A stretch of DNA of 19,514 bases. It comes from a virus (lineage: Duplodnaviria; Heunggongvirae; Uroviricota; Caudoviricetes). The notes below the pieces were generated by a model. That model ran no database searches. It was not told where the DNA came from and saw only the letters and a program-made list of their open reading frames with translations. A program made the translations under genes and the position numbers. Numbering within the stretch: the first letter of the stretch is position 1; every line of letters starts with the position of its first letter. Below are positions 358 through 19,514 of this stretch, in pieces. Where the stretch lies: positions 1 through 19,514 of the IMG/VR virus record IMGVR_UViG_2585427793_000004; one strand, 5' to 3'.

Positions 358-369
358 AAAAGCACCTGT

Positions 370-396: not shown

Positions 397-410
397 ATGG
401 TGCCGGAGGC

Positions 411-437
411 ATAAAAAAAGCCGGATTTACCGGCTTC
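411..437 (-). terminator. Rho-independent terminator ending the early/middle transcript
   Basis: Minus-strand RNA reads AAGCCGG-UAAAU-CCGGCUU followed by a run of 7 U; lies ~25 nt 3' of the stop of CDS 459-956. Confidence 0.7.
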
Positions 438-458
438 ATTGAATATCAGGTTATTGAC

Positions 459-2922: not shown

Positions 2923-3020
2923 TTTTTATTCCTGAGTAATCTGTTTCAGGCGCGAGCAATCCCCTGACGCATCGCGCCATAATTAAAAGAAAGTGAATTA
3001 ATTAAATATTCGTGGTGGTA

Positions 3021-3545: not shown

Positions 3546-3565
3546 ATAAATAAAGCTCCTGTTAA

Positions 3566-3853: not shown

Positions 3854-3865
3854 TCCGGTCACCAC

Positions 3866-4285: not shown

Positions 4286-4305
4286 TGTCAGCGTTCCTTT
4301 GTGAA

Positions 4306-4575
4306 TTAATGTGTTGCGGCATCCGGGTTGCACCGGAATAACTCGCCTTCAACTTCCAGCCCGCGTTCCCTGGCGGATTCCAGCAACGCCCGGGTCGCCT
4401 TCTCAATAATTTCAGACGCCATACTCTTGATAATGCCTGCCATCAGATCATGCGGCCCGACCTGTCCCTCCGGGGATTGCTCTTCCAGCCGCACATTCAT
4501 ATTGATATAAAAATGGTTATTTCTTTGCATCTCAGCACTTTCTGCGCAATTAAATTCGAAGATGACCTTTGCCAT
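4306..4575 (-). CDS. Hypothetical early protein, 89 aa
   Basis: Track ORF 4306-4629 trimmed to the ATG at 4575 with GAGGA RBS (MAKVIFEFNCAESAEMQRNNHFYI...). Confidence 0.5.
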   Translation of the reverse strand: MAKVIFEFNCAESAEMQRNNHFYINMNVRLEEQSPEGQVGPHDLMAGIIKSMASEIIEKATRALLESARERGLEVEGELFRCNPDAATH

Positions 4576-4607
4576 TTTGTTATTCCTCACAAATAAAAAG
4601 TTCACTA

Positions 4608-4835
4608 TTAACGCCAGATAATCTGGCAACCATTAAGACGGGCTGTCCATACAGAACGGGCTACCCCGGACTTATGCTCCATAATTCTGACCGCGTTTTT
4701 TACCAGCTCCACCGGTGGGTATGTGATTTCAAGAATCGGACGAGCCACGCCGAGATATGATTCATTTACATGACTCCCGCGCGCCTGTAACCAGTTCTGC
4801 GCATCCGTCGCCATTTTGATATTCCGTGACATCAT
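4608..4835 (-). CDS. Small early protein, 75 aa, in the position of Mu kil
   Basis: ATG at 4835 with AAGGAG RBS, 14 nt after the B stop ([20 protein letters not shown]...). Assignment is positional only: in Mu the gene immediately after B is kil. Confidence 0.5.
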
Positions 4836-4848
4836 GATTTCGCTCTCC

Positions 4849-5787
4849 TTACGTGCGCAGCAGAGTTGAAATATCAACGTCCAGGTCTAATTCACGGAAA
4901 GCCTGACGCAGATAATCTTCATTAACTCGTTCACCTTTGCCGTGGGCGGTCATGGCCGCAAGGCGCAGCGAGTGGTTCAGGATTCGAAGCGCACCTGGTT
5001 TTTGTGCAATCTGCTGTAATAATTCCCGCTCGTTTTCGCCGGTAATTTGCCAGGCATCCGCAATGGCTTTTACATCATCAATTTTGGTTTTATTAATTGC
5101 CGTCCGCTTTGCAATACGGGAAAACAGGCGGGCAAATTCAACCGTTCTGTTACCGCCGGTCATGTTTGAATAAACACGGTGATTCCCCATCAGAACAAGA
5201 CCAATACGGGCGGATTCCTGTAACAGGCGGAGTTCTTCCAGAACCTCAGCGCCAAGATGATCAGCTTCGTCGATAATGACCAGCCCCTGCGTACCTTCAA
5301 GGCGGCGTCGCAAAGCGCGGGAGAGTGGCCCCTTACGGCGCGGTGCGTCATTCATTCCCAGTTCATAAGCCAGTTCAGTCAGGCATTCCAGAACACTGGC
5401 ACAGGATGGGGTAATGGTGATCAACCAGACATTGTTATTGGTGCGCCGAAATTCGCGGGCCGCTTCAGTTTTTCCCACACCTGGATTACCGCAGATAACA
5501 GAAATACTTTCAGTCAGACTGGCAAAACGCATACTCGTCCAGATTTGGCGTGCTGTTCTGGTTTCCACAAAACGCGGGGGTTCTGGCAGCTCTGCGGCGC
5601 GGTGATAGTTTTCCAGCCAGCGTTCCAGCGTCTGCGCGACACGGTCATTGTCTCCGTTGTACTTGTTATTCACGAATGCGCTTAACGTTCCTGCGGCCAC
5701 GCCGGACTCGCGGGCAATTTGTGCATAAGTTGTTTTTTCACTTTCTACAAGCGTGCGCAGTCCTGCGCGAATATCGGAAATATTCAT
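4849..5787 (-). CDS. B: Transposition ATPase / target DNA activator B (MuB-like, AAA+)
   Basis: 312 aa, the length of Mu B; Walker A GNPGVGKT and Walker [11 protein letters not shown]; N-terminal HTH. Near-identical over long stretches to Mu B as I recall it ([15 protein letters not shown]..., ...[12 protein letters not shown]). Confidence 0.9.
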
Positions 5788-5825
5788 CTGAATAACCTCG
5801 TAATTAAATTTTATTTAAACGTTAA

Positions 5826-7907
5826 TTAAATGGCTTTTTTACGTCTGTTCTGTTCCAGAATATCCAGCGAATGATTCAGATATTCGTCGCGGTCACTCTC
5901 ATATTCATCATCCGGTTCATCAGCCAGTACTAACACGACTTTCTCCACTGGTCTGTAGACGTTGTTGAACAACCCGTTGCCTGTAACAGGAGCAGGCAGT
6001 GTTCGGGTATTCTCTGCCTCGGCCAGTCTGATTTTTTCCTCTCCCCGCTGACGCATCCCTTTGATGCGCTGCTGGCGCTGATGGTATTCTGCAGTGACCG
6101 GGAATGCCTGCTGTTTATTGCCATCCCAGACCGCCTCACAGATATAGGACCCGTCCATGCGGCGGATAATTACTTTTGTTGCATCATGAATATCGTAATT
6201 CACCAGCACCTTATTACCGTGTTCATATTCCAGATCAGTTGAATAATAAATGTTATTAAACAACCTGACTTCACAACGGTTGACTGTACGTTCAATCTGC
6301 GGCATAAACATTTCACGCAGTTCAAGGTCGGACAACCATTCGATTTCTGTCGCTTCTTTTTCCAGTTTGTAGCGTCGGAACTGCGCCGGGGTGTAATGTT
6401 CACCGTTTCCACGTAGTGGTAGCGAACTATGCGGACGGTTGTTGTACCATTCCACACCAGCTTCAATAGCAACAATAAGTTCATTCCATGACGGCAGGTT
6501 TTTTAAAGCCTGCCGTTGTTTTTCTGTCAGCTCCCGTCCTTTGTTTGCCGCATTTGTTGCAGACATCAGAGTCTTTGTCATACGACGAACCGTTCCACGG
6601 TCGGCACCGGTGCCATAATACGTGGCAAACTGACGTGATATACGCATAGCCAGAGTGCGGTTCAGACGCTCTATAATCCCTCGCCCTTGCGGGTTTTCAG
6701 GTATACCAAGACGGTGATCAATTCCAAGACGCGGTAAAACCCCCGTGATATCAGCATCAAACGTGTTGTTAGTTTCACCGCCGCCATTATCTGAATAATA
6801 GATGTACGGTTTTCCGTGATTTTTAATTCCGTGGCGTAACGCATCAGCAACAGCAACCACACTTTCAGAAAGTGCCAGACTCCAGCCCACAATAAAGCGG
6901 CAACTGCCGTCCATGATAAAGGTGACTTCTGGAGAAAATGGATTGCCGTGATCAGGATGCGCCACTTTCATCTTCATGCCGTGACCATCACCAATCCAGG
7001 CATAATTCACCGGCAAAGATAACCAGTCCCGACGCACGAAGCCTTCATACTGGCGGAACTCACTGCCAGTAATGCGTCCGCGTTGTTTCACAACAACCGG
7101 GAGTTTGTTCATTGCATAGCAAACCTGATCATACGACGGCAGTGCTGCACACATCGCAGGATTATCCTGATGCACTTCATACCATTCCGCAGCAAAATCA
7201 TCATAAGCCTCCTGCATTCCGCACCCGTTCGGACGACGGTAAAAACGAAGAAACTCAGGTAACCAGCGAATCTGGTCGGGTTTTATGGGTTGACGTTTAC
7301 CAGGTGCCAGCATGATCAAACGTTCAGCCGGAGTGGTAGCCTTTTTAAAATCAGCAATCCAGCGTTTCAGTGATATTTCACTAAGGGATCGCAATGAACC
7401 TTTTTTCGCATTCGCAGTTGCAACGGTTTCCACCAGGTGTGCCGGTAACTCACCGTTTTTAGCCTGTTTCACAAACTCACGGATGGCAGCAGCCTGGCTG
7501 ATTCCTGGTAGTTCACAAACGCGCAAAACTTCGCTGACAATCGCAATTCGGGCGTCCGCTGTTTCTTTTTGCGTGGCGGTTAACGTTCCGAGTTTCTGCT
7601 CAAACAGCGCAGGACATTTGCGGTAAACCGCAATTTTGCCGTCTTCACGTTTTTTTAAACGCGGAGATTCAGGTTCTTTTGCCTCAGTTGCTGGCTGATT
7701 CATTAACGCCTTAATCTGGCGAGCCTGTAACGCCTTACGCGCCACATCAGGCAAACAGTCGACATGGAACTCAAAAGCCTTTGTCCCTGCACGCTTACGC
7801 ATCATTCCTTCTGATTCGCCGCAATAACGGCGCAATGCTTCCCGAATTCCTTTAATTGTTTTTGGTAATCCTGGTACACCGACCAGCTCTTTGGCGAGAA
7901 CAAACAT
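5826..7907 (-). CDS. A: DDE transposase A (MuA-like)
   Basis: 693 aa, ATG at 7907, 3 nt after the ner stop. N-terminal LPGLPKT motif as in the MuA DNA-binding domain; C-terminal tail ...DEYESDRDEYLNHSLDILEQNRRKKAI matches the MuA C-terminus as I remember it. Sits between ner and B as in Mu. Confidence 0.9.
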   Translation of the reverse strand: MFVLAKELVGVPGLPKTIKGIREALRRYCGESEGMMRKRAGTKAFEFHVDCLPDVARKALQARQIKALMNQPATEAKEPESPRLKKREDGKIAVYRKCPALFEQKLGTLTATQKETADARIAIVSEVLRVCELPGISQAAAIREFVKQAKNGELPAHLVETVATANAKKGSLRSLSEISLKRWIADFKKATTPAERLIMLAPGKRQPIKPDQIRWLPEFLRFYRRPNGCGMQEAYDDFAAEWYEVHQDNPAMCAALPSYDQVCYAMNKLPVVVKQRGRITGSEFRQYEGFVRRDWLSLPVNYAWIGDGHGMKMKVAHPDHGNPFSPEVTFIMDGSCRFIVGWSLALSESVVAVADALRHGIKNHGKPYIYYSDNGGGETNNTFDADITGVLPRLGIDHRLGIPENPQGRGIIERLNRTLAMRISRQFATYYGTGADRGTVRRMTKTLMSATNAANKGRELTEKQRQALKNLPSWNELIVAIEAGVEWYNNRPHSSLPLRGNGEHYTPAQFRRYKLEKEATEIEWLSDLELREMFMPQIERTVNRCEVRLFNNIYYSTDLEYEHGNKVLVNYDIHDATKVIIRRMDGSYICEAVWDGNKQQAFPVTAEYHQRQQRIKGMRQRGEEKIRLAEAENTRTLPAPVTGNGLFNNVYRPVEKVVLVLADEPDDEYESDRDEYLNHSLDILEQNRRKKAI

Positions 7908-7910
7908 AAA

Positions 7911-8159
7911 TCAGGATACCTTCTGAATGTAGCTTTCTGTCTGATAGCGGCTGGGCCAGATAGTTTCCGGTGCAACCCCCAGCGCATCAGCAACAATCTG
8001 CTGATAAGGTTTGCACGGTGTGCGTAAAACACTCTTGAGGGAGTCTTTGCTGTAACCCGCCTGAATGGACAGTGCGCGAAATGACAGTCCCCGTTTGTGA
8101 ATCTCTGCCTTAATGATTTCAGGGTGCCAATCGGCACGCGGATCTTCTTTTCGAGTCAT
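7911..8159 (-). CDS. ner: Ner-like DNA-binding early regulator
   Basis: 82 aa; ...ADWHPEIIKAEIHKRGLSFRALSIQAGYS...ETIWPSRYQ resembles Mu Ner (shared ...IWPSRYQ motif). Divergent from the repressor gene, immediately upstream of A. Confidence 0.8.
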   Translation of the reverse strand: MTRKEDPRADWHPEIIKAEIHKRGLSFRALSIQAGYSKDSLKSVLRTPCKPYQQIVADALGVAPETIWPSRYQTESYIQKVS

Positions 8160-8310
8160 GATTCCACTATCCTAAAAAGTTATCCGTGCGGATAACCGCG
8201 CGGTTATCCACTCGGACAAAGAATAAGAACACAAAAAGAACTTGTCAAATGTTCTTTTGTGTTTTTTATGTGTCTGCACTTTTTGTCTTTTAATTCAATT
8301 GGATAAGCAA
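8160..8310. promoter_or_regulatory. Divergent early/repressor promoter-operator region
   Basis: 151-bp gap between the divergent ner and repressor genes. Three alternating GTTATCC half-sites at 8179-8209 (GTTATCCG-TG-CGGATAAC-CGCGCG-GTTATCC), plus an imperfect palindrome CACAAAAAGAAC-N9-GTTCTTTTGTG at 8230-8261. Confidence 0.6.
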
Positions 8311-8922
8311 ATGAAACGTGAGACTCAAAAAGAACACAATGGTTCTTTTGCTCCTGATTCAAAAGAACCTGTTATCAATAGAATTTTTAAACTAGTAGAT
8401 CGCTATCGTTCGAGAAATGAAGCTGCGAAAGCGTGGGGAATCAACATCAATACGTTACAGAACTATTACAAACGTAAAGACCTCTCTCCAGTACCAAGAA
8501 AAACTCTGTTAGAAAAGATAGCGCAGTGTGAAGGGGTCAGCCTTGAATGGCTTCAAACCGGAGAGGGAAAAGAACCAGAAATGAACATAAAAAGAACTCA
8601 AGACGGTTTAGTGCCGCCTCATTCAGATTTAGATGATAAAATCCTATCGCTGATCCGCTTTTTGTCTGATAGCGAGAAAGAAGCGTTATTCCAGGTGCTT
8701 GCTCGCAAAGGGATAGAAACACTACTTTTTCTCCTTGACGAAGATAATATTCGCTTACTACAAATGGATCGCGTAGTGAAAGAGAAAATCCTGGGAATCC
8801 AGCCCAGAACGCCCGAGGAGCAGGCTTTTGCAGATAACGAGGCGAGAGAGTGTGATACCACTCATCCTTTACGCCATGAACAGTCCAAGAGCCTGACAAC
8901 TAAAAAGCAGCAGGCCCGCTGA
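8311..8922 (+). CDS. Phage repressor with CI-type helix-turn-helix
   Basis: Track ORF 8242-8922 starts at a TTG; first ATG is 8311 (MKRETQKEHNG..., 203 aa). NEAAKAWGININTLQNYYKRKDL...EGVSLEWLQTGEG resembles the phage CI-repressor HTH. Only convincing + strand gene in the window, divergent from ner as the Mu repressor is. Confidence 0.7.
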   Translation: MKRETQKEHNGSFAPDSKEPVINRIFKLVDRYRSRNEAAKAWGININTLQNYYKRKDLSPVPRKTLLEKIAQCEGVSLEWLQTGEGKEPEMNIKRTQDGLVPPHSDLDDKILSLIRFLSDSEKEALFQVLARKGIETLLFLLDEDNIRLLQMDRVVKEKILGIQPRTPEEQAFADNEARECDTTHPLRHEQSKSLTTKKQQAR

Positions 8923-9089
8923 TAGTAGTTTGCCTATTTCATTAGGCTGTTTTCGATGTTGGTGTAGAACTATGTCAACGCTGTAGCGGCCTGCTGATAC
9001 TCATTGCGGTAGATGTATGACTAAAACGAAGAAAAGATTTACTGCGAGCGAGGGAGTTTAAAAACCATCGAACAGTATTTGAAGGTTTT

Positions 9090-9249
9090 TTGACGTAGTA
9101 TCAAAAGTTTTACCCAAACTGGCATTTTCCTTTGATGGTATCAAAAAAGCGGTAACACGAAATCAGCCTAACAACACAACCTAACTCGTTGTTTTATCCC
9201 GCCAAATCCCGTTTATTCTAATGTTCTCCCGGTTTTCTCTCTGGTATCA
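9090..9249 (-). repeat. Mu-type left end (attL-like) with three direct copies of a transposase-binding-like repeat
   Basis: On the element strand the motif TTTGATAC(C/T)A-N5-8-AAAA occurs three times (+ strand GTATCAAA at 9099-9106, 9143-9150, 9245-9252), spaced like Mu L1/L2/L3. Element-strand sequence from 9249 inward, TGATACCAGAGAGAAAACCGGGAGAACATTAGAATAAACGGGATTTGGCGGGAT, resembles the Mu left end as I recall it (...GAAAAAAACCGGGAGGACATTGGATTATTCGGGATCTGATGGGAT...). Exact terminus uncertain by about 10 bp. Confidence 0.55.
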
Positions 9250-9627
9250 AATAAACTCCTTCTCAATAAGCAGGGTGCCACCGGCATAAACAATCTCGCC
9301 CCCCTGCGGATCCGGCATCCATCCAAGCAGGGCTTTCCAGAGTTCTCTCCGGACATCATGAACGGCGTCATAGGCTGCCCACTGCCCTTTTTCATCACGC
9401 TCATTGCTGAGCACAACAATCACGGAGAAGCCTTCTGTCAAATCCTGCCAGTAATCGGTCTGTGATTTTTGTTCCCCCGGTGCATCGTCAGAGGGAACCA
9501 CATAGGCAGCAGGCAGTCGCAGTTTTCCGGCATCAGGGATCGCCTTAAACTGCGCCGCGCCACCAACACGATCCTCAAAACGCGGGCATCGCTCACGCAA
9601 CGCCGCAATTATCGTTGTCAGTTTCAT
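9247..9627 (-). CDS. Phage neck / tail-terminator-like hypothetical protein, 126 aa, possibly 3'-truncated by the Mu-like insertion
   Basis: ATG at 9627 overlapping the stop of the upstream gene. Its TGA stop (9247-9249) falls inside the first bases of the putative Mu-like end, so the native C-terminus may be replaced. Family assignment is a guess from position after a gp10-like gene. Confidence 0.55.
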   Translation of the reverse strand: MKLTTIIAALRERCPRFEDRVGGAAQFKAIPDAGKLRLPAAYVVPSDDAPGEQKSQTDYWQDLTEGFSVIVVLSNERDEKGQWAAYDAVHDVRRELWKALLGWMPDPQGGEIVYAGGTLLIEKEFI

Positions 9628-10148
9628 TTATGCTTCCTTTTTACCGGACGTAACGAACGCTGCAGCTCACGGGACAACAGTTCCTGCGTCCAGTGACGCC
9701 GCCGCTCAATAACGTCAGCCATAAAGTTATTACGCGGGGCCAGCCGGAAAGTCGAAGAATGGTGCTTCTTCTGCCGCTTATCCTTTTTGTCCATTCCATA
9801 CGCTGAATGGCGAACGCCGTAATACAGAAATGCCGGATAATAGGATGCGCCTTCATGGAAACGGCGATTCCCCTGCCCGTTTTTCTGGTTAGGAGAAATT
9901 TTCACCATCAGTCCGGGGCGACGCGTCGTTTTTTTGGGAACGTAATAACCGATGGAGCGGGCCAGACGCCCGGTCTGATATCCCGGATTCTCTCCCGGAC
10001 CGGAACGCCCGCGTTTAATCACCAGACGTCTGGCGTCGCGCATATAGACGCGCCCGATCTGCACAAATGCCCGCCGCAGACGGGCACGATTAAACTCCAG
10101 CTCCTTTGGTTGTTTAAAGTCGACGTGTAAAAATGCTGTCTGATTCAT
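9624..10148 (-). CDS. HK97 gp10-family head-tail joining protein
   Basis: Track ORF 9624-10187 trimmed to the ATG at 10148 with GGGGTGA RBS (MNQTAFLHVDFKQPKELEFNRARL...). Motif RGRSGPGENPGYQTGRLARSIGYYV resembles the conserved PG...TGRLRRSI signature of the HK97 gp10 family. Confidence 0.65.
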   Translation of the reverse strand: MNQTAFLHVDFKQPKELEFNRARLRRAFVQIGRVYMRDARRLVIKRGRSGPGENPGYQTGRLARSIGYYVPKKTTRRPGLMVKISPNQKNGQGNRRFHEGASYYPAFLYYGVRHSAYGMDKKDKRQKKHHSSTFRLAPRNNFMADVIERRRHWTQELLSRELQRSLRPVKRKHK

Positions 10149-10530
10149 GGCATTCACCCCATCGTCGCGCTGTACGCAGTTCCTCACATTCCAGTAATAA
10201 AAAACGTCGCTGACCGTTCAGGTCGCGTATTCGCCGGATCCGGTACTCCTGACCGTAATAAACCACCTCATGATCTGCCGTGATGCCGTGACGGAAACGG
10301 ATTGTAAAATAATGCGTAACGACATTTTCTGTCTGCACTGAGCCCTGATAAGCGGCAGCGCCTGGCTGAGCCACCTTTGCCCAGACATCAAACGACTCCG
10401 GATACGTTGGCTCCGTACCAAAATCAGCGGTGGGTTCATCCACCCGAAGGCGGATCTTTATCCGGCGATTCAGCTCTCCGGGATCCGGTAAAAGGTAAGT
10501 GGCACTGGTCTGACTTTGCCTGATTTTCAT
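10114..10530 (-). CDS. Head-tail adaptor / head closure protein
   Basis: Track ORF 10114-10563 trimmed to the ATG at 10530 (ATGA overlap with the connector stop). ...PGELNRRIKIRL...WAKV...YRIRRIRDLNGQRRFLLLECEEL is the typical head-tail adaptor signature. Confidence 0.7.
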   Translation of the reverse strand: MKIRQSQTSATYLLPDPGELNRRIKIRLRVDEPTADFGTEPTYPESFDVWAKVAQPGAAAYQGSVQTENVVTHYFTIRFRHGITADHEVVYYGQEYRIRRIRDLNGQRRFLLLECEELRTARRWGECHESDSIFTRRL

Positions 10531-10850
10531 AGCGGGACAATCCTGTAAGGGCCAGCAAGCCATCTGAAACTCATTGGCGTTTCCAGTTTCTCCACATCGG
10601 TGATCGTTGAGCGATTTTCATAAAAATGACTGACCAGCATCAGCATTGCCAGACGAACGTCATCAGTCAGATGCATCCCGTCAGGATCGTCTTCCGGAAT
10701 CGTCTCTTCCGGTGCATACAACTTCCTGTTCAGGTATGTCTCTGTTCTTTTCTGTACCGCCTGTGCCAGCAATTTCAGAAAATCGCCGTCACTGTACAAA
10801 CCATCATCGAGCCGGAGGTGAGATTTAATTTCCTCTTCTTTCAGGAGCAT
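10527..10850 (-). CDS. gp6-like head-tail connector protein
   Basis: The supplied track lists this ORF as +, but the translation MLLKEEEIKSHLRLDDG... is only obtained from the reverse complement: ATG at 10848-10850, strong AGGAGG RBS, TGA at 10527-10529. N-terminal ...EEIKSHLRLD... is the usual gp6-type connector start. Confidence 0.75.
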   Translation of the reverse strand: MLLKEEEIKSHLRLDDGLYSDGDFLKLLAQAVQKRTETYLNRKLYAPEETIPEDDPDGMHLTDDVRLAMLMLVSHFYENRSTITDVEKLETPMSFRWLAGPYRIVPL

Positions 10851-10861
10851 ATTTTCCTCCT

Positions 10862-10883
10862 GTGCCCGCCATTACGCGGGCAC
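10862..10883 (-). other. GC-rich stem-loop between major capsid and connector genes
   Basis: Perfect inverted repeat GTGCCCGC-cattac-GCGGGCAC, between the MCP stop (10896) and the connector RBS. On the - strand the U-run precedes rather than follows the stem, so not a canonical terminator. Confidence 0.4.
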
Positions 10884-10895
10884 AAAAAAACCGCA

Positions 10896-12122
10896 TTACG
10901 CAGTGGCTTTCTGGCGGGTTGCAGCCCCAATTTTCATCAGCTTAATCGCCTGAGAATCCACCAGCATACCGCCGGTTCGCTTGGTGGTATAAAAACCCAC
11001 AAACGGTTTGTTGGTGTACGGATCGCGCAGGATACGGGTACCGATGCGATCAACGATGGTATAGCCACGTTTGAAGTTACCAAACGCAATGGCTTTTGCA
11101 TCGGCGGCAATATCCGGCATCTGCTCATTCTCAACGATGCCATACCCTGCCAGAGAAGAAGGCTGACCCAGCTCAATACCCGGACGCCACAGATAATTTC
11201 CGTCGTTATCCTTCAGCAGACGAATGGCAAACAGGCTGCTGTTGTTCATCATGAACTTCGCGCCGCTGCGGTGCGCCTTACGCAGGGTGTAAATCAGTTT
11301 AATGATCGCATCAGCGGTCACGCCGGAAGCCGCACCGGAAGCGATATGCTGAAGTTTGCCAAACTTACGGGTTTTGTCATCTTCATCGGTGGACTCATAA
11401 GCCAGAAAACCTTTTGGTTTTTTGCTGCCGTCGCCACTGGTAAAGGCCATTTCTTCCTGTTCGGCAAATTCCAGCGCCAGCTCACTGTTGATCCAGTCTT
11501 CCACATTGAAGAAAGCGTCATCGAGCATTTTCTGGGTGGCCTGCGGGTTGCCGTAGATTTCCCCCATAAAGGGTTCAATCAGCCCCAGTTTTGAGGTGGC
11601 GGTTTCCGGACGCGTATCCGTTTCCCCCACCCATCCGGACTTAGTGCCGCCCAGATTCACCAGTTTTTTATAATCCGAGCCACCGAGGGTGATCACGGTG
11701 GCTTCCTGGCGCATCACCACCTCATCTTTCAGCAGCGTCAGGATGGTACGATCCAGTTCTTCCGGAATGGCATAACCACCATCTTCATCATTGCCCACCT
11801 GAAGCGCCTTACGTTCAAGTTCACGCAGACCGTCTTCACGCCCCTTGCGCATAAATCCGATAAACGCTTCTTTGTGTTCACCGGCAACTTTATTTTTCGT
11901 GCCGCCTGCCGGACGCTTAACTTCAGCCAGCTCAGCCTCAAGATCGCTTTTCAGGTTTTCCAGCTCGCTGATTTGCCCGTTCAGGCTTTCCACCTGTTCG
12001 GCCAGCTTGCTTTTTTCCTGTTCGATCGCGTCAATGCGCTTGTCGTTTTTTGCCTTAAAATCGTCAAACTTCTGCTGCAAATCCTGCGCGACCTGTTCAA
12101 CGTCTTTAATATCAACAGCCAT
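10896..12122 (-). CDS. Major capsid protein, HK97 fold, with N-terminal scaffolding-like delta domain
   Basis: 408 aa; ATG at 12122 with AGGAG RBS. N-terminal ~100 aa are coiled-coil-like (KLAEQVESLNGQISELENLKSDLEAELAEVK), followed by a capsid domain, as in HK97 gp5-type proteins. Confidence 0.9.
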   Translation of the reverse strand: MAVDIKDVEQVAQDLQQKFDDFKAKNDKRIDAIEQEKSKLAEQVESLNGQISELENLKSDLEAELAEVKRPAGGTKNKVAGEHKEAFIGFMRKGREDGLRELERKALQVGNDEDGGYAIPEELDRTILTLLKDEVVMRQEATVITLGGSDYKKLVNLGGTKSGWVGETDTRPETATSKLGLIEPFMGEIYGNPQATQKMLDDAFFNVEDWINSELALEFAEQEEMAFTSGDGSKKPKGFLAYESTDEDDKTRKFGKLQHIASGAASGVTADAIIKLIYTLRKAHRSGAKFMMNNSSLFAIRLLKDNDGNYLWRPGIELGQPSSLAGYGIVENEQMPDIAADAKAIAFGNFKRGYTIVDRIGTRILRDPYTNKPFVGFYTTKRTGGMLVDSQAIKLMKIGAATRQKATA

Positions 12123-12135
12123 TATTTACTCCTGG

Positions 12136-12786
12136 TTAAAATTTAAGATTTTTCAGTGCATTCAGTGCGACATCCACATCCTCAGCATCACGCAGGGATA
12201 AAGCGCCATATCCCCCGGCCATGAATGCTTTGGCCTGGGTTCGCGAGAGTCCAACATCGCGCAGGACTCGCTCAATAATTTTCTGATCAGGGATCTCCCC
12301 ACGCGCCAGCGCATTTTTCACATCGCTGATGCGTGCTTCATCATTGGAAGGAAACGTCACCAGACTGACCTCCCACAGGTCGATCTCTTTCAGCAGGAAT
12401 ACCCCTTTTTCCCGGTCGTACTCCCAGTCTTTCAGGATGTAGCCAACAGAAAGGCCGGTTAAAGAACCGGCCTTCATATGGGCGTGTGCACGTTTTGCCA
12501 GGGGATCATCATCAACGAGTAATCGCCCCCTGACATAAAGCCCGACATCATCTTCTTTCATTTCGGTGTACACACCGATGGGCTCATCCATGCGGTGCTG
12601 CCAGAGCAACGCAGGCAGCGCCTTTTTTTCGCTCCATTTCTGGAGTGTTGTGGTAAAGGCACCGGGGACCACCACATCATCGTGGCTGTCCTTTACACCA
12701 AAGACGGAGCCATACCCTTCAAACTCACCGGAGTCACTGACAGATTTCAGACTCAGCGGTACATCAAGACGTTGTTTCGTCTGCAT
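12136..12786 (-). CDS. Prohead maturation protease (HK97 family, S78-like)
   Basis: Track ORF 12136-12822 trimmed to the ATG at 12786 with AAGGA RBS (MQTKQRLDVPLSLKSVSDSGEFEGYGSVFGVKDSHDDVV...). Lies between portal and capsid genes. Confidence 0.8.
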   Translation of the reverse strand: MQTKQRLDVPLSLKSVSDSGEFEGYGSVFGVKDSHDDVVVPGAFTTTLQKWSEKKALPALLWQHRMDEPIGVYTEMKEDDVGLYVRGRLLVDDDPLAKRAHAHMKAGSLTGLSVGYILKDWEYDREKGVFLLKEIDLWEVSLVTFPSNDEARISDVKNALARGEIPDQKIIERVLRDVGLSRTQAKAFMAGGYGALSLRDAEDVDVALNALKNLKF

Positions 12787-14005
12787 TGGCGTTATCCTTC
12801 TGCTTACCGGCTTTACTGCCATCGGAGGGTTTCGTGGTCATGTTCATCGGTGTGAGATAGACATCACCACCGGGACGCGGATTCATATCTTCCAGGTCGC
12901 GGCAGTCATTGGGAGAGTAAATTCTCCAGTTGATCCCCGTGGCGTAGGCTTCAAAACGGGATTTCATATCCCCGCGCAGTAACGCCCCGGCGTTAAATTT
13001 GGCGTAAAACTTCCCCTGTTTGCTCTCCCTGACCAGCCCTGTATTGATCCGTTGTTCAATACGGGTCAGATACGGCACAAGGGAATAGTTGATAAATCCG
13101 AGCCCCAGCTCTTCAATATTGTTGAAAGTGGCGCGATCGGTGTTCTGCACCATGTGCAGCGGCACGCGGAAAAGACGACAGATTTCTTCCAGCTGAAACT
13201 TGCGGGTTTCCAGGAACTGGCTGTCCTCGGCGTTCAGTGCCACCGGCTTCCAGTCCAGCCCCATTTCCAGAATCATCGGACGGTGCGCATTACCCAGCCC
13301 AAGATGCCGCTCCTCAAAATCCCTCTTCATGCGCTCATAAGCATCCGGCGTGAGCTTTTGTTCCGTACGCAACACACCGGATGTCACAGCACCGTTACCA
13401 AACAGCCTGGCGCCGTGCTCCTCGGTTGCCGCTGCCAGTGAAATGGCCTCGCGCGCATATGCAATGGGATTCAGACCGACAAGTCCATCCAGCGTCAGGG
13501 TGCGCACATGCCAGATTTCATCCTGGGTCAACACATCCACGGAGCCATCCGGAAACGTCACCTGATAAACCGGCTGCCACTGGCTGTTCAGCTTCGGCTC
13601 CACACAGCCCGGATCTATCGGAAGAAGCTCCACTACTTCCCCCAGCGCCTTCACCTTGTAGGCGTAAAAATTCCCCCGCAGACACAGGCAGACAATAACC
13701 AGCTCCCAGAATTCCTGCGGCGTCATGTAGCCATTGGGTTTTGCTGAAATCAGCTTATGCAGCCGTTCATCCACCGCCCGTGTTTTAAGGGTGCCGCTGA
13801 TTTTGTAGAGACTGCAGGGCAGCATACCAACAGACTCAGCCAGCACCCTGACGCAGGAATACACCGCCGTCAGCCGCATGGCCCGCTGGCTGCTGATCCG
13901 CTTTCCGGTATAGGTGTCGTATGACAACCCCAGCTCTTCCGCAAGCATCCCGGGCGTTGTGACGGGGGTGTTATTTTTACGTTGAAAAAGCCCCTGGAAA
14001 AACAT
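12764..14005 (-). CDS. Portal protein (HK97 family)
   Basis: 413 aa; ATG at 14005 with GGAGGTGA RBS. Size and position between large terminase and protease are canonical. Confidence 0.85.
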   Translation of the reverse strand: MFFQGLFQRKNNTPVTTPGMLAEELGLSYDTYTGKRISSQRAMRLTAVYSCVRVLAESVGMLPCSLYKISGTLKTRAVDERLHKLISAKPNGYMTPQEFWELVIVCLCLRGNFYAYKVKALGEVVELLPIDPGCVEPKLNSQWQPVYQVTFPDGSVDVLTQDEIWHVRTLTLDGLVGLNPIAYAREAISLAAATEEHGARLFGNGAVTSGVLRTEQKLTPDAYERMKRDFEERHLGLGNAHRPMILEMGLDWKPVALNAEDSQFLETRKFQLEEICRLFRVPLHMVQNTDRATFNNIEELGLGFINYSLVPYLTRIEQRINTGLVRESKQGKFYAKFNAGALLRGDMKSRFEAYATGINWRIYSPNDCRDLEDMNPRPGGDVYLTPMNMTTKPSDGSKAGKQKDNANADETTS

Positions 14006-14187
14006 TACTCACCTCCGGAGGCGACCCGGTGACCACGATCGAGATAACGCGCAACCAGCCACGACCAGCACAGACACAGCCCCCCGGCAACAACAAAACC
14101 CGCCGGGGGATAAATCAGCCAGGCGCCATACGCCAGCAAAAGCACACCCAGCACGCCCACCAGAGGCGTGAGAATTATCAGAAACAT
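14005..14187 (-). CDS. Small two-helix membrane protein, 60 aa, inserted between terminase and portal
   Basis: ATG at 14187 with GAGG RBS; stop overlaps the portal [52 protein letters not shown] has two hydrophobic helices. HK97-type modules normally have terminase and portal genes adjacent. Confidence 0.45.
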
Positions 14188-14198
14188 AATGACCTCGG

Positions 14199-15956
14199 TT
14201 AAAGCGAGCGAATACCAACGCTGACCAGATGTTCAGACAGATCCGGCTCCGGTTCACCGCCATTGACCAGCATCCGGCTCATTGCTGTAAACATCGCAAC
14301 AGGGCCGTCGATTTTGGCTTCCGGCGTGGATTTATTCGGGAAGATATTGTCGTTTTTGTCCGGTTTTACCGTAACGTTAGACATCATCCAGTTCATGACC
14401 GGATGATTGCTGTGGTGGAAACGCCCGGCATAGACCAGTGATTCCGTTTCCTTCATGGCCTCTGACAGATTGCGGACCGTCTGCGGAACTTCCACCAGCG
14501 GTATACCTTCTTCAGTCAGCGCCAGACTGAACTGCATTGCGCTCCACGGGTCAAATCCCAGTTCCCTCAGGTTTTCACCGCCAATCCATTCCAGTAGGTC
14601 ACTTTTGATCTGAGCATGATCGATAACATCACCATCCGTCAGGATGAGCTTACCCATCTCCGCCCACTTCCGGTAAAGTTCTGCCTGCTGCCGTGAGCAT
14701 CGTTCCAGCCGTCCTTCCGGAAGCCAGAATTTAAAATCGGCATGAACATGCCCGTTATCCGTTCGCCAGAGTTTTGCCGCCGCACAGATATCAATCTTAT
14801 GAGCAAGGTCGACGCCGACCCACATGGGATATGTTTTCAGCTCATGCTGTGGAGCAATGTATTCGCACTTCTCCCACTTAATCATGTCCATCCAGGCAGA
14901 CTCTGCTGTTACCCACACATTCATGTGTTTGGTAAAAAAATTCACCCGCGCAGAGACCTGTTCTTTCGCTTTTTTCGCCAGGCGACGCAGATCATCCCAG
15001 CGTTTACAGATGCCCAGGCCGGGATTCGCTTTCTGCCAGACCGTTTCATCAAACGGATCATCTCCCTCATCGAGGGTGTAAATAATCGCAAAGTAGGAGT
15101 CGTCTTTTACCGCGCCCTCCACGTCGCTGTTATAGCCTCGCAATACCTTGATGGCGTAATCGCGTTGCTCGTAACAAATCCCTTCCTTGTTAAAGCCAGC
15201 CGTGGTGATACCAAATAACAGGGACTGCAGACGGGCACCGGTTGCCGTTTCCAGAACGTCCCACACGTCGCGGGTTTTATGTGCATGCAGCTCATCAATA
15301 ATGGCGCAGTGGATGTTCAGACCATCCAGGTTGTTTGCATCCGAGGAAAGCGGTTCAAATTTTGATGCGCTCTGCTCCTGGTAAATCGCCAGCTTGTTGA
15401 AATCAAACAACCGCCCGAGTGTCGATCGGGCTTTTCTGACCATATTTTTGGCGTCTTCAAACACGATTCTGGCCTGGTCACGCGTGGTTGCGGCTGAATA
15501 CACCTCAGCCCCGCCTTCACCATCTGCCCCCGTCATATACAGACCGATACCTGATGACAGGGTTGATTTTGCGTTTTTACGGGCGACTTCGTTGTACGCT
15601 GTCCGGAAACGGCGCACCATCACCGGGCGTCCGCTGCCATCGCTGCGCATGACAACTTCCCCGGTCTCTTCATTCACCAGCGGAATGACAAAACCAAAAA
15701 TATTAATGAGGATAAAAACATGCCAGTCCATCAGTTCAATGGGCTGACCTGCCAGCGCCCCTTTTACATGGGGCACAAATTTGTAGAAATTCAGGATGTG
15801 CTGCGCACGGGGTTCACTGAAATAAATCCCCCGCTCTTCGCCGTACTTCAGATCATCAAGAAAACGCTGGCAGGCCAGACGGACAAATTCACCAGCGACA
15901 ATTTCTCCTGCAACAACACGTTCGGCGTAGCGGATCCCGTCAGCCACTTTTGCCAT
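14199..15956 (-). CDS. Terminase large subunit
   Basis: 585 aa; ATG at 15956, ATGA overlap with the small-subunit stop. Size and placement between small terminase and portal. Confidence 0.9.
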
Positions 15957-16438
15957 CAGTCTCTCGCTTTTAAAAGTTCTGCCAGCGGATCAACATCATC
16001 CGGTCCGGCGATATTTACTTTCGCCCGGCTTGCCGGTGACATACCAAATTCTGCAAGCATCGCCCGGATCCGCTTCCAGGCATCCGCTTTCATCGCAGCA
16101 GCCGGGTGTGCCTTAATCAGCACATCACCGTTCTGCGTTTCCGTGCGGTAGGTATAACCCTCAACATCGAGTGTTTCGCAGTGATGCCGGTATTCGGTGT
16201 AGGCTTCCACCAGCAACTCGAGTGCACGCGCATCAAGCTGAGAAATGATCCCTTCCGCATTCAGCTCTTCCGCCATTCGCCTGAACCAGTACTTTCCCTG
16301 CGCCCCTAAATGCTGCGGAATTTTAGGGAGACCTTTTTCGTCCTTTTTAGCGGTTTTTTTGGCGTCTTTAACGGGACGCTTTGAGGGATTGCCTCGTATC
16401 AAATGCAGGCGTGGCGGGGGTTTCGGGGGGCCTGACAT
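15956..16438 (-). CDS. Terminase small subunit (P27-family-like)
   Basis: 160 aa; basic, Lys/Pro-rich N-terminus (MSGPPKPPPRLHLIRGNPSKRPVKDAKK) then a helical domain; directly upstream of the large subunit. Confidence 0.75.
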   Translation of the reverse strand: MSGPPKPPPRLHLIRGNPSKRPVKDAKKTAKKDEKGLPKIPQHLGAQGKYWFRRMAEELNAEGIISQLDARALELLVEAYTEYRHHCETLDVEGYTYRTETQNGDVLIKAHPAAAMKADAWKRIRAMLAEFGMSPASRAKVNIAGPDDVDPLAELLKARD

Positions 16439-16585
16439 AATCGATTTTACCTATCAATCGTTTGATCGCATTCCCAAAAAAAAGTTTTCGAACCTGCGGC
16501 GATGCGAGGAAGGGTTGGCGGGCGGTCCCGGACAGCCAGGGCTGCAGGGATTTGCCCCGCCCCTCCCTACAAGTGAGAATAATTA
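16439..16585. other. Candidate cos / packaging-site region
   Basis: 147-bp non-coding, GC-rich gap between HNH and small terminase genes, where HK97-like phages place cos. Contains GGTTGGCGGGCGGTCCCGG, loosely reminiscent of lambda cosN. Speculative. Confidence 0.3.
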
Positions 16586-16936
16586 TCACCTGATTCGTTC
16601 GCGCGCTGTTTTCGCTTTATGGCAGGGCCAGCACAGACTCTGCAGGTTGCTGTCTGCGTCTGTTCCGCCATGCGCTTTCGGGATGATGTGGTCGACGGTT
16701 TTCGCCTCGCTCACCACACCGGCACGCAGACACAACTGACACAGACCTTTATCGCGCTTCAGAATACGGGCACGAATCACCGTCCATTTTGAGCCATAGC
16801 CACGCTGGTGGCGGCTCAGTCCGCGCTGGTGCTGCACCCAGCCTTCACCACGATGTTTATCACAGTAGCCAGAGCTGTCTGTTGTTGTGCCTGCGCAGCC
16901 TCGCTTACGACAGGCGCGGGGGATCCGTGATGGCAT
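16586..16936 (-). CDS. HNH endonuclease (terminase-associated)
   Basis: Track ORF 16586-17005 starts at a GTG; the ATG at 16936 has a strong AAGGAG RBS (MPSRIPRACRKRGCAGT...). Cys pairs CxxC...CxxC and the H-x-x-P-x-x-x-G-G motif (DHIIPKAHGGTD...CWPCH) are typical HNH; placement before the terminase is classical for HK97-like phages. Confidence 0.8.
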   Translation of the reverse strand: MPSRIPRACRKRGCAGTTTDSSGYCDKHRGEGWVQHQRGLSRHQRGYGSKWTVIRARILKRDKGLCQLCLRAGVVSEAKTVDHIIPKAHGGTDADSNLQSLCWPCHKAKTARERIR

Positions 16937-16997
16937 TGGAATCTCCTTAATACCGACATTATCGCAGCCCCTCACTGAAGAGCTGCTGTAATGCCTG

Positions 16998-17126
16998 TTA
17001 CTCACGAATCAATCGAGCATGTTGACCGCTCATTTCAACATGTTGACCGCTCATTTCAATGCGTAAGTATTGTGGCTTGCCGTCAATCAACGCGGTGATT
17101 AACTTATCACCTGTAGGTTTCCACAT
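16998..17126 (-). CDS. Small ORF, 42 aa, containing a 21-bp in-frame tandem duplication
   Basis: ATG at 17126 with AGGAGA RBS; translation MWKPTGDKLITALIDGKPQYLRIEMSGQHVEMSGQHARLIRE; TAA at 16998-17000. Below the track's 60-aa cutoff. Coding status uncertain. Confidence 0.3.
   Translation of the reverse strand: MWKPTGDKLITALIDGKPQYLRIEMSGQHVEMSGQHARLIRE
17018..17059. repeat. Perfect 21-bp direct tandem duplication (2 copies)
   Basis: CATGTTGACCGCTCATTTCAA at 17018-17038 and again at 17039-17059, with no mismatches. Confidence 0.95.
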
Positions 17127-17299
17127 AATTTTCTCCTGTTTTAATGCCCCTTGCCGCCGGGCAGTTGATCAAAGTTCATCTTGATTCGGCAAGATTTAGA
17201 ATGAATAAGATAAAATTGGCACACGCAGCAGAATTTCATGCTTTCCGGACGCTGACGCACCCTTCATTTTTCAGCAAAATATTCTGCTCTTACAGGCGA

Positions 17300-17482
17300 T
17301 CAGTTCTGCAGACACTGCCGAACACCGTCGACAATTTCACAGACCTGAGACGCGGTATCGAAAAGCTGGCGCGCCTTATCCAGGCTGACGCACCCCACCA
17401 ATAAAAAAGGCACCAGTATCGCTACCAGTGCCCGTTTCACCGCCGTTCGCGGCATTCTGTGTGTCCAGTGTTTTCGCGCCAT
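17300..17482 (-). CDS. Small putative lipoprotein, 60 aa
   Basis: MARKHWTHRMPRTAVKRALVAILVPFLLVGCVSLDK...: hydrophobic signal segment ending in a lipobox-like LLVGC; mature part ~30 aa with 3 Cys. Not proline-rich, so not a typical o-spanin. Confidence 0.45.
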   Translation of the reverse strand: MARKHWTHRMPRTAVKRALVAILVPFLLVGCVSLDKARQLFDTASQVCEIVDGVRQCLQN

Positions 17483-17486
17483 ATCA

Positions 17487-17597
17487 CCACCAACGCACAG
17501 CCCAAATCAGAACAGCGACCGCCACAAGGCGAATTGCAAAGGCCGCAGCCCTTGTCAAATCAAGGCTCGCGGGAGTTTCCATTTCAATACCTTTCAT
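17487..17597 (-). CDS. Mini membrane protein, 36 aa
   Basis: ATG at 17597 with GAGG RBS; MKGIEMETPASLDLTRAAAFAIRLVAVAVLIWAVRWW; its stop sits 5 nt before the ATG of the lipoprotein gene. Below the track cutoff. Confidence 0.3.
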
Positions 17598-17685
17598 AAT
17601 GGACAACCTCAAAAAGAATCTTTTATACTTTCCCACGAGGATTTTCTCCCTACTCACTAATCACAATTTCCCCTTTGACGTGAAA

Positions 17686-17728
17686 ACTAAAAACCCCGGA
17701 CTGTTCCCCCAGCCGGGGTTTTGTTTTA
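17686..17728 (-). terminator. Rho-independent terminator after the endolysin gene (bidirectional in appearance)
   Basis: AAAACCCCGG-N13-CCGGGGTTTT with T/A runs on both sides; on the - strand the stem is followed by UUUUUAGUUUU and begins right after the endolysin stop at 17730. Confidence 0.7.
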
Positions 17729-17729
17729 C

Positions 17730-18107
17730 TTATCGCTTCAGCTGAAAGTGAGGTCCGTCTTTCAGCGTTTTCCAGTCCCCGCCCCATTCGATAGCGATCC
17801 CCAGCTCTGCGGCAGCCTGCTTAAATGCCTGTGCGATTTTCTCGTACAGAGGCCACTCCCATGACACCTGACTGCCAATGTAGGCCACAACATCCACCGC
17901 ATCACCGGTCAGGTGGCGGCTGTTCATGGTCTGGCTTTTCCCTTCCGCAACCAGCTGTTTCTGGCGATACTTACTGCGCAGGCCTTCCGTAATACCGAAA
18001 TCAACCTCCGTCAGCTCCAGCGCACGGCGAACTACAGCAACCAGCTGTGGTTTGACACCCTCCAGATTTTTTTCACTGCGACGGCTGAATCTGAATTTAC
18101 CCGGCAT
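17730..18107 (-). CDS. Endolysin, peptidase M15-like (L-alanyl-D-glutamate peptidase type)
   Basis: Track ORF starts at a GTG (18113); the ATG at 18107 follows a GAGG RBS (MPGKFRFSRRSEKNLEG...). Zinc-site-like pattern SRHLTGDAVD ... DGPHFQ (H-x-x-x-D ... H) typical of M15 phage endolysins. Confidence 0.75.
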   Translation of the reverse strand: MPGKFRFSRRSEKNLEGVKPQLVAVVRRALELTEVDFGITEGLRSKYRQKQLVAEGKSQTMNSRHLTGDAVDVVAYIGSQVSWEWPLYEKIAQAFKQAAAELGIAIEWGGDWKTLKDGPHFQLKR

Positions 18108-18109
18108 AT

Positions 18110-18385
18110 TCACCTCAACAATGGAAAGATTTTTGTGACGTTCCCGCGTGCGCGTATCACCAGCACGCAGAACAGCAGATTAAAAAACACTTCCAGCCAG
18201 CCCGTTGCTAACGGGCGACCACACAGATAGCTGAGGGGCGCAAAGGCATACAGCAGCATCAGCAGCCAGGCCAGCCATGACACCAGCGGTTTATGTCTGG
18301 AATCACGGCGACGATAAAAAAAGAGCGTCAGCACGATAACCGTGCATAACGCCACATTCAGCAATCCGGGAAGGTTACTTAACAT
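18110..18385 (-). CDS. Lysis-cassette membrane protein (holin or antiholin candidate), 91 aa
   Basis: Track ORF 18110-18439 trimmed to the ATG at 18385 with GGAGG RBS (MLSNLPGLLNVALCTVIVLTLFFYRRRDSRHKPLVSWLAWLLMLLYAF...). At least two hydrophobic helices; immediately upstream of the endolysin. Confidence 0.55.
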   Translation of the reverse strand: MLSNLPGLLNVALCTVIVLTLFFYRRRDSRHKPLVSWLAWLLMLLYAFAPLSYLCGRPLATGWLEVFFNLLFCVLVIRARGNVTKIFPLLR

Positions 18386-18767
18386 TGCCGCCTCCTCCAC
18401 CCCGCAGGCGGGAGAACACACCGGACACCAGCGATGCAATATCCTGCTGGTGGATGAACGAGAGAATCTTCACCGACACCACCGAGACCAGCACCGCGCA
18501 AAGCGCATCTGCTGATGTACCGTCATACCCTGTTTTTGATGCAATCCAGGCTGACAGCACACGCGCTCCCAGCACGCCGACAATAAACGACACCAGAAAA
18601 TGTGCCACCACGCGCCAGACTGAAAGTGACTGTGGCATCGTTGCCACAAATAACGCCCCGGCGAACGCGCCAAACACAATCCCGAAATCCATTCCGGTAA
18701 ACAGCCCGAATACCGTCGCGCCACCCAGCGCCGCAGCCGTGCCGGAACCGGATAAGGGTTCAGACAT
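18375..18767 (-). CDS. Holin-like membrane protein, 130 aa
   Basis: ATG at 18767 with strong AGGAGG RBS; Gly/Ala-rich hydrophobic helices (GLFTGMDFGIVFGAFAGALFVA..., VAHFLVSFIVGVLGARVL...); first gene of the lysis cluster. Confidence 0.6.
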   Translation of the reverse strand: MSEPLSGSGTAAALGGATVFGLFTGMDFGIVFGAFAGALFVATMPQSLSVWRVVAHFLVSFIVGVLGARVLSAWIASKTGYDGTSADALCAVLVSVVSVKILSFIHQQDIASLVSGVFSRLRGGGGGNVK

Positions 18768-18777
18768 ACTTCCTCCT

Positions 18778-18805
18778 GAAAATAAAAAAGGGCCACCAGC
18801 GACCC
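18778..18805 (-). terminator. Weak terminator-like hairpin immediately upstream of the holin RBS
   Basis: Minus-strand RNA GGGUCGCUGGUGGCCC (6-bp stem with two G-U pairs) followed by UUUUUUAUUUU, abutting the holin RBS. Confidence 0.35.
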
Positions 18806-18823
18806 GTAAAAAAACACCCCGTC

Positions 18824-18852
18824 AAAGGCATCCGCAGATGCCTTTTGTGTGA
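18824..18852 (+). terminator. Hairpin with U-tract, canonical in the + orientation
   Basis: AAAGGCATC-cgca-GATGCCTTT followed by TGTGTGATGTTATT on the + strand; on the - strand the same stem is followed by GACGGGGUGUUUUUUU. Confidence 0.4.
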
Positions 18853-18854
18853 TG

Positions 18855-19007
18855 TTATTCAGATTTACGCAGTAAAGGCCGGAGCACGACCAGCGCCATC
18901 ACCACCAGCACACCATCTGCCAGCACCGACATCAGTCGTCCGGTGAAATCAACCACCACTACCAGAAACAACAGGATGACAGCCAGCACAAGGCGCGCAC
19001 TTTTCAC
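18855..19007 (-). CDS. Small hydrophobic peptide, 50 aa from a GTG start (25 aa from the internal ATG)
   Basis: GTG at 19007 preceded by GGAG, overlapping the TerB-like stop. (V)KSARLVLAVILLFLVVVVDFTGRLMSVLADGVLVVMALVVLRPLLRKSE is two hydrophobic helices. Not in the track (under 60 aa). Coding status uncertain. Confidence 0.3.
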   Translation of the reverse strand: MKSARLVLAVILLFLVVVVDFTGRLMSVLADGVLVVMALVVLRPLLRKSE

Positions 19008-19429
19008 AGGTACTGCTCCAGCGGCAACTGCAGCGCCTGCGCAATTTTCTTCAGTTGCGCTTCTTCTTCCTGAGCGATACCGTCCTGGTCAGCGATATCC
19101 AGACACAGGCACAGCACATTAACTGCATCATCAGTACCGGCAACATCAGCCAGCTGACGAAGAGCTTCGGCATTGGCAGAACGCGGCGACGCTTCATAAC
19201 GGGCGCGGATATTTGCACTCATTTGTGCAATCTCACCGGAGAACGGCGCAAAGGCAGGAAGTGCTGCAATGGTTTTTTCCAGTACCGCGATTTCTTTCGC
19301 GTCACAGGTGCCGTCAGCGTATGCAATGGAGTACGCGCCCCAGACGGTCGCCTCCACTGCGTCACGGTTCTCCATCTTCTTCACTTCGGTAATGGCCTTG
19401 CGGGTTTTCTTTTTGAAAATACCAAACAT
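19004..19429 (-). CDS. TerB-like domain protein (tellurite-resistance TerB / DjlA-N-like fold), 141 aa
   Basis: ATG at 19429 with AAAAGGAAAAG RBS. Amphipathic helical protein with acidic C-terminal half (LCLCLDIADQDGIAQEEEAQLKKIAQ) that resembles TerB-family proteins; family call is from pattern memory only. Confidence 0.55.
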   Translation of the reverse strand: MFGIFKKKTRKAITEVKKMENRDAVEATVWGAYSIAYADGTCDAKEIAVLEKTIAALPAFAPFSGEIAQMSANIRARYEASPRSANAEALRQLADVAGTDDAVNVLCLCLDIADQDGIAQEEEAQLKKIAQALQLPLEQYL

Positions 19430-19514
19430 CGTGACTTTTCCTTTTAGTGGGTGAGCCTGCGCCCGGGGGTGACCAGCCCACAGAGAAAGTCACACTGACC
19501 ATCCCGTAAGCTCA

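Follow-up and report, generated by a model that had tools for sequence, protein, structure and literature searches.

A derived in-frame 21-bp tandem duplication in a putative remnant micro-gene of a phiP27-like ETEC prophage

What does a perfect 21-bp tandem duplication mean when it lies inside a micro-gene next to the packaging module of a prophage? The question is raised by a stretch of tailed-phage DNA of 19,514 nucleotides (IMG/VR record IMGVR_UViG_2585427793_000004, positions 1 to 19,514), which is referred to below as the window. The original prediction, made from the sequence alone, regarded the duplication as very recent and proposed two meanings for it, namely a repeated heptapeptide in a small protein or a DNA-level site near the packaging region. 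Here, we compare the locus with its relatives, and consider it probable that it represents a derived and heritable in-frame 21-bp duplication in a remnant micro-gene of a phiP27-like ETEC prophage, which is likely neutral and plays no packaging role.

The repeat itself was described correctly. For positions 17018-17059, Tandem Repeats Finder gives a period of 21, 2.0 copies and 100% matches, that is, a perfect tandem duplication with zero mismatches. Searching both strands of the window for CATGTTGACCGCTCATTTCAA with no more than three mismatches returned the two tandem copies only, and 0 occurrences are expected according to 200 shuffles of the window. On the gene strand the sequence reads ...CGC ATT GAA ATG AGC GGT CAA CAT GTT GAA ATG AGC GGT CAA CAT GCT CGA..., in which GTT (Val) is a new codon formed at the junction. 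Seven residues are inserted by the duplication, and translation of the ORF confirms an in-frame repeat in a 42-aa product with the duplicated heptapeptide EMSGQHV / EMSGQHA. It should be noted that any duplication of a 21-bp unit is in frame by arithmetic. The good RBS that had been noticed on the small ORF and the position of the repeat upstream of the HNH endonuclease gene, which lies downstream on the same strand, were also confirmed. The features of the locus are listed in Table 1.

Table 1. Features at and around the duplicated unit, in window coordinates.
Feature	Position	Strand	Remark
Two holins and M15 endolysin	17730-18767	-	
Membrane ORF, 37 aa	17484-17597	-	Match to uncharacterised PHROG
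Lipoprotein-like ORF, 51 aa	17300-17455	-	Lipobox LVGC; match to uncharacterised PHROG
Leader region	17127-17226	-	Homologous to leader of full-length core + tail gene
Shine-Dalgarno AGGAGA	17132-17137	-	5 nt 5' of micro-ORF ATG; common to full-length L33-like gene (CAGGAGA)
Micro-ORF, 42 codons, MWKPTGDKLITALIDGKPQYLRIEMSGQHVEMSGQHARLIRE	16998-17126	-	ORF translation; ATG at 17126
Repeat copy 2, same as copy 1	17039-17059		Exactly these 21 bp missing from one-copy relatives
Perfect 12-bp palindrome TCAACATGTTGA	17035-17046		Spans junction of repeat copies; without counterpart in one-copy allele
Repeat copy 1, CATGTTGACCGCTCATTTCAA	17018-17038		Gene strand TTGAAATGAGCGGTCAACATG
Stem-loop, strong, conserved	16955-16995	-	Immediately 3' of micro-ORF stop; without U tract
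HNH endonuclease, 116 aa	16586-16936	-	PF01844, E = 1.9e-16; next gene downstream, packaging module
Homologue of annotated phiP27 cos site	16514-16523 (about)		Between HNH and TerS; alignment to cos-site feature of NC_003356
TerS, P27 family	15956-16438	-	
TerL, P27 family	14199-15956	-	Followed by HK97-type head genes

The genes of the neighbourhood are all on the minus strand, in the order TerB-family gene, DUF3927 gene, two holins with M15 endolysin, small ORFs, micro-ORF, HNH, cos, TerS and TerL. Human ETEC genomes contain a prophage to which the right half of the window shows 99.3-99.9% identity, and the nearest named phage is phiP27. Complete E. coli genomes matched at most about 53% of the window in one place. 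Because the best genome matches all begin at 9269, the tail-side positions 1-9268 belong to a different mosaic block from the head/packaging/lysis half (9269-19514). The head/packaging/lysis region is also found, with 99.2% identity, on a record labelled as a 261-kb plasmid (pE300082_261, NZ_JBRERL010000002.1), and strain E300082 has a second prophage copy on its chromosome. As for the two ORFs of 37 and 51 aa after the endolysin, they match PHROGs 7528 and 4493 and show only faint Rz-like spanin matches; they may constitute a minimal spanin pair. An exact 12-nt direct repeat, GCTGACGCACCC, is present at 17251-17262 and 17384-17395, 133 nt apart, with one copy downstream of the 51-aa ORF and one within it, and may be due to chance.

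On the downstream side, the HNH gene is annotated from ATG 16936 in identical RefSeq prophages, and from GTG 17005 in the mechanical ORF list. Because the annotated start is ATG 16936 and not GTG 17005, the HNH gene does not overlap the micro-ORF; this ATG has its own AAGGAG, and the stem-loop is then intergenic. The HNH annotation of some relatives extends 3 nt further at the 3' end (354 nt). At 16932-16954 (minus strand), its AAGGAG and AUG are predicted to be folded into a small second hairpin, GGUAUU...AAUGCC, which could limit HNH translation. The stem-loop at the end of the micro-ORF has a folding energy of -31.1 kcal/mol for a 76-nt stretch (z = -5.45). Its stem is kept in the relatives and its loop varies in sequence and length, and the downstream modules diverge just 3' of it, after GGGGCTGCGATAATG, which marks a mosaic joint. 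The stem-loop may serve in RNA processing or stability, or may represent a recombination joint. The promoter and terminator scan found neither a sigma-70-like promoter nor an intrinsic terminator inside the micro-ORF cassette, and the sole strong terminator-like site is located at 17408-17433 (minus strand), inside the upstream lipoprotein ORF. In an Rfam scan of 16300-17800, no match was found over the repeat or the micro-ORF (16900-17300, E <= 1). An opposite-strand ORF at 16991-17098 (plus strand) was rejected, which has no RBS and shows 2 synonymous and 12 non-synonymous differences in its frame.

Then, is the second copy peculiar to this prophage? The comparison of related prophages for one versus two copies, which had been suggested as a check, was carried out, and both alleles exist. 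In the survey of 5,426 complete E. coli genomes, the two-copy allele was found in 16 records, 15 of which are identical over 261 bp and one (ETEC6) 99.6% identical. Another 18 records have the same flanks and are exactly 21 bp shorter (240-bp versus 261-bp matches), in about 30 further records a single copy is found in another context, and the alignment of one-copy and two-copy relatives contains a gap of 21 columns. The junction-specific 27-mer occurs once each in four IMG/VR contigs and two metagenome contigs, and 477 contigs carry a member of the 42-aa protein cluster. Three copies were not seen in the E. coli genomes, IMG/VR or the metagenomes, where there are either one or two. Consequently, the locus does not behave as a phase-variable contingency locus or VNTR, because no copy-number series beyond one and two was found and the 21-bp unit is always in frame. 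A single copy is carried by every other DNA haplotype, in each of four downstream contexts (HNH, ParB/Srx and two others), and by the homologous tails of longer full-length genes. Because all of these have one copy, the one-copy allele with its 35-aa product is ancestral and the two-copy allele derived. A one-copy micro-ORF, unannotated, is also present in Actinobacillus phage vB_Apl-pPE4 (PP818812.1; Actinobacillus pleuropneumoniae), with 92.6% nucleotide identity over 526 bp, a closeness that is unexpected for such different hosts.

The very recent age that had been attached to the duplication does not hold. In a 10.2-kb alignment of the window and eleven prophage copies, one local haplotype at 16588-17460 is common to the window and the six two-copy prophages, but elsewhere their backgrounds are 8-69 SNPs apart over 10.2 kb (up to 0.7% over 10 kb), in a blocky and recombinant manner. 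The six carriers came from Japan, Mali, Bangladesh and China. The closest one-copy allele, that of E100341, has the left-hand haplotype in common with them and three private SNPs to the right. Furthermore, in the IMG/VR locus L028 the HNH segment next to the two-copy allele has diverged (22 mismatches over 600 nt), and ETEC6 has acquired a mismatch between the copies, a synonymous ATT>ATC at the edge of one of them. At a divergence of about 0.5%, zero mismatches in 42 bp is the expected outcome. Because the local haplotype is common but the prophage backgrounds have diverged, the duplication is a single event that has been stably inherited and is not very recent. The two-copy allele could be used as a lineage marker for the ETEC prophage.

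How might the second copy have arisen? The unit starts with CATGTTGA and ends with TCAA, so the junction of two units forms the palindrome TCAACATGTTGA; the one-copy allele has only a quasi-palindrome, CATGTTGA-N9-TCAAtgcg. The plus strand at the junction palindrome folds with a 10-bp stem, and a palindrome of at least 12 bp across the junction was produced by 0.24% of the simulated 21-bp duplications in the window (P about 0.002). Slipped mispairing between flanking direct repeats was considered and rejected, since no microhomology is present at the borders of the duplication (gag/CATG...TCAA/CATG...TCAA/tgcg), and the closest TCAAT repeats have a spacing of 25 nt instead of 21. The junction sequence, viewed after the fact, suggests a hairpin template-switch origin. 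The nascent strand would fold back at TTGA/TCAA and copy CATG from its own arm, and would then realign at the template CATG and re-copy the unit, leaving exactly the observed borders. Template switching at short imperfect inverted repeats is a documented route of mutation (PMC8604942, PMC8794818). As predicted for quasi-palindrome template-switch mutations, the one-copy allele has an imperfect inverted repeat and the mutant has a perfected arm (TCAA then CATG). However, in classical quasi-palindrome events the palindrome is perfected without duplication of the spacer, whereas a second realignment must be assumed here.

The micro-ORF as a whole also has a history. Its product matches the phrog_8025 HMM over positions 1-42 of 42 (E = 4.7e-32), and the 35-aa allele matches it with E = 1.1e-22. 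The RefSeq protein WP_000265820.1, a hypothetical 42-aa phage protein, has the same sequence as the product, and there is no difference between the window micro-ORF and these two entries, which carry no function and mention neither the duplication nor a remnant origin. Because the phrog_8025 profile has 42 positions, it must have been built on the derived two-copy allele. We found no mention of WP_000265820 in the literature, and no Pfam, NCBIfam or PDB sequence match to the product, used singly or as a profile. The Tfa N-terminal domain (Caudo_TAP, PF02413; Mu U, PDB 5YVQ) was not found in the micro-ORF.

With the one-copy peptide as query, tblastn located homologues that form the C-terminal ~33 residues of two larger proteins, one of 237 aa in Yersinia phage vB_YpM_41 and one of 137 aa in E. 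coli phage 613R2. In E. coli prophages, genes of 130-131 aa end in IDGKPQYSRIEMNGKSARLIRE and ELQPGEMFVMTDIIDGKPQYSRIEMNGKSARLIRE, each followed by the stop, and their N-terminal ~95 residues represent the phiP27 L33 / phrog_1935 protein. According to the PHROG HMMs, the 237-aa protein is composed of Tfa (1-103), phrog_1935 (103-222) and phrog_8025 (204-232, E = 1.4e-8), and the Tfa N-terminal domain (residues 1-116) is present only in this relative. Protein alignment distinguishes five architectures: the core by itself (83-98 aa) or twice (223 aa), the core with the tail (130-141 aa), this pair preceded by Tfa-N (222-237 aa), and the tail by itself (35 or 42 aa). The phiP27 L33 core is a widespread domain of ~57 aa, for which 665 representative clusters were counted at E <= 1e-3. 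It occurs mostly in proteins of 57-100 aa (for example, L010 1242-1637 and L001 2913-3260, both on the minus strand; proteins P0005-P0216), and there is a tandem duplicate in P0048 and a Tfa N-domain fusion in P0055, the Yersinia phage protein. Neither the 131-aa relative nor the L33 core has a Pfam, NCBIfam or PDB match, a Pfam scan of the long core-family representatives for domain fusions gave weak Lcl_C matches only, and the phrog_1935 HMM does not match the micro-ORF.

In phiP27, L33 (NP_543085.1) occupies exactly the slot of the micro-ORF, between the lysis cassette and the HNH/terminase genes, with a homologous leader and RBS. However, it is the converse of the window ORF, a core without the tail, and at the 3' end shares with it only the final GAG-TAA codons and the 3' stem-loop. 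The longer phrog_1935 members (131-237 aa) have a tail homologous to the window ORF, which lacks the whole ~57-aa core (FKFELSQLV...GENQYLIHY...WFGESML) and aligns to the C-terminal extension only. In the 100 nt upstream of the micro-ORF, 66 of 108 alignment columns are identical to the leader of the full-length gene (z = 6.2, a score reached by 0 of 1000 shuffles), and the homology takes in CAGGAGA and the ATG. The simplest reading of these sequences is that the micro-ORF is a deletion remnant of a larger gene. An internal deletion of ~290 nt would have removed the core from a ~131-aa gene consisting of the L33 core and a ~34-aa tail, thereby joining the leader, RBS and ATG of the parent to the tail codons and the 3' stem-loop. 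The reverse direction, in which a free-standing tail gene was fused to a core elsewhere, could in principle apply; deletion is preferred because the leader is shared with the full-length gene.

Is the remnant still a gene? The micro-ORF is intact in 13/13 one-copy DNA haplotypes and in all contexts, and the two main haplotypes differ at four synonymous and no non-synonymous positions. The selection test covered E. coli-type prophages. In the first variant set, 8 synonymous and 6 non-synonymous differences were counted in the micro-ORF frame (P = 0.003-0.015); with more IMG/VR haplotypes, the counts became 10 and 14 (P = 0.018-0.07). The substitutions R34C, D7Y and E24K are radical, and in haplotype L079, 6 of the 35 residues are changed, which is the expectation under relaxed constraint. 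Coding constraint on the micro-ORF is thus weak, and its translation is plausible. Among the GTDB species representatives, the exact leader/start pattern had 0 matches, and the peptide pattern gave 48 candidates, none of which was confirmed.

These observations bear on whether the ORF is simply a dead remnant, untranslated or functionless, with the repeat as a neutral indel in decaying DNA. We give this alternative a real chance, though we think it unlikely. It accords with the origin by deletion from a larger gene, with the weak constraint and the divergent haplotype, with phiP27 lacking the tail altogether, and with the annotation, in which PGAP/RefSeq calls the 42-codon allele in 16/16 two-copy genomes and the 35-codon allele is not annotated in any listed one-copy record (e.g. 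L004 1559-1666). However, no frameshift, nonsense mutation or start loss occurs in any of the 13 one-copy haplotypes or of more than 60 genomes; the RBS and the ATG have been conserved, and synonymous enrichment is seen in the micro-ORF frame but in none of the four other frames that are non-wobble-linked. We therefore retain a remnant that is probably still translated from the late transcript. The micro-gene sits in a variable accessory slot, with the lysis cassette on one side and the packaging module (HNH/terminase) on the other, and the two-copy allele would have spread with the prophage and by recombination. The duplication is most likely neutral or nearly so, where neutrality is an assumption.

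At the other extreme, the orphan tail might function on its own as a microprotein, for instance as a module that binds a host or phage partner, in which the duplication is adaptive and adds a beta-strand. The strong RBS has been kept, and no one-copy haplotype has lost the ORF in any of the downstream contexts, of which there are at least four; the differences between the main haplotypes and the ETEC6 mismatch are synonymous, and the two-copy allele persists across diverged backgrounds. AlphaFold2 models the 42-aa peptide as a meander of four short predicted strands with a pLDDT of 62, and core + tail with a mean pLDDT of 44. With low confidence, the models picture the 35-aa peptide as a small beta-meander, to which the duplication would add one strand-length segment. 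However, the overall counts include more non-synonymous than synonymous differences, with the radical substitutions and the changes of L079 among them; neither a family annotation nor a PDB relative or Pfam match is available, the model confidence is low, and the reading frame would be preserved by any 21-bp duplication. We regard such a function as rather improbable. Its most specific form, which we hold as a long shot, is that the 35-aa tail is a self-sufficient beta-hairpin microprotein kept after loss of the core, and that the template-switch duplication was adaptive by adding a strand. If true, it would be a modular orphan-domain gene that serves a purpose of its own in the lysis-to-packaging slot, and a natural case of a microprotein born from a truncated gene and then extended by internal duplication.

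Could the repeat act as DNA instead, for example as a site bound by terminase or HNH or as a signal for packaging? It is no more than about 500 bp from the packaging genes, and the 12-bp junction palindrome could in principle bind a dimeric protein. However, a single copy is carried by prophages that are closely related (98.4-99.4% identity across 10 kb) and share the P27-family terminase genes, and the HNH protein is identical in 3 of the 5 one-copy relatives examined. The unit occurs nowhere else in the window, the cassette moves together with the lysis-side module and is also found ahead of ParB/Srx and of further modules whose terminases differ, and the sequence is entirely missing from phiP27. 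The cos homologue is ~500 bp away, on the far side of HNH, and in the archetype HK97 the distance between the cos cut and TerS binding is 15-29 bp (PMC11331095). The neighbouring HNH gene, cos region and P27-family TerS and TerL do follow the order of the HK97-type HNH-TerS-TerL cos module, but the repeat lies outside it, upstream of HNH, and is absent or single-copy in phages with the same module. As for a terminase recognition repeat of the cosB or pac type, the unit is not adjacent to cos, and its copy number is not conserved among terminase-sharing phages. A packaging role is unsupported, and the DNA-site alternative of the original prediction seems very improbable to us. An assembly or sequencing artefact is negligible: although perfect short tandem repeats are occasionally miscounted, nothing was found in its favour, and the identical allele recurs in 16 complete genomes assembled independently in several laboratories and countries as well as on the IMG/VR and metagenome contigs and in the 477-contig protein cluster, in an array of 42 bp that is far shorter than a sequencing read.

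The sequence itself is already known from RefSeq and PHROGs, in entries to which no function is assigned. What is worth recording is the remnant origin, the palindromic junction, and the difference in annotation between the 35-codon and 42-codon alleles, by which the duplication appears to create a gene in the databases among prophages that are otherwise near-identical. The exact borders and the junction palindrome make the locus a tidy candidate case of hairpin-templated tandem duplication. As a short in-frame indel in an uncharacterised prophage micro-ORF, the duplication carries little weight for biology at large. For the phage family, the locus shows an accessory protein family split into core-only, tail-only, core + tail, core + core and Tfa-fused forms at one genomic slot.
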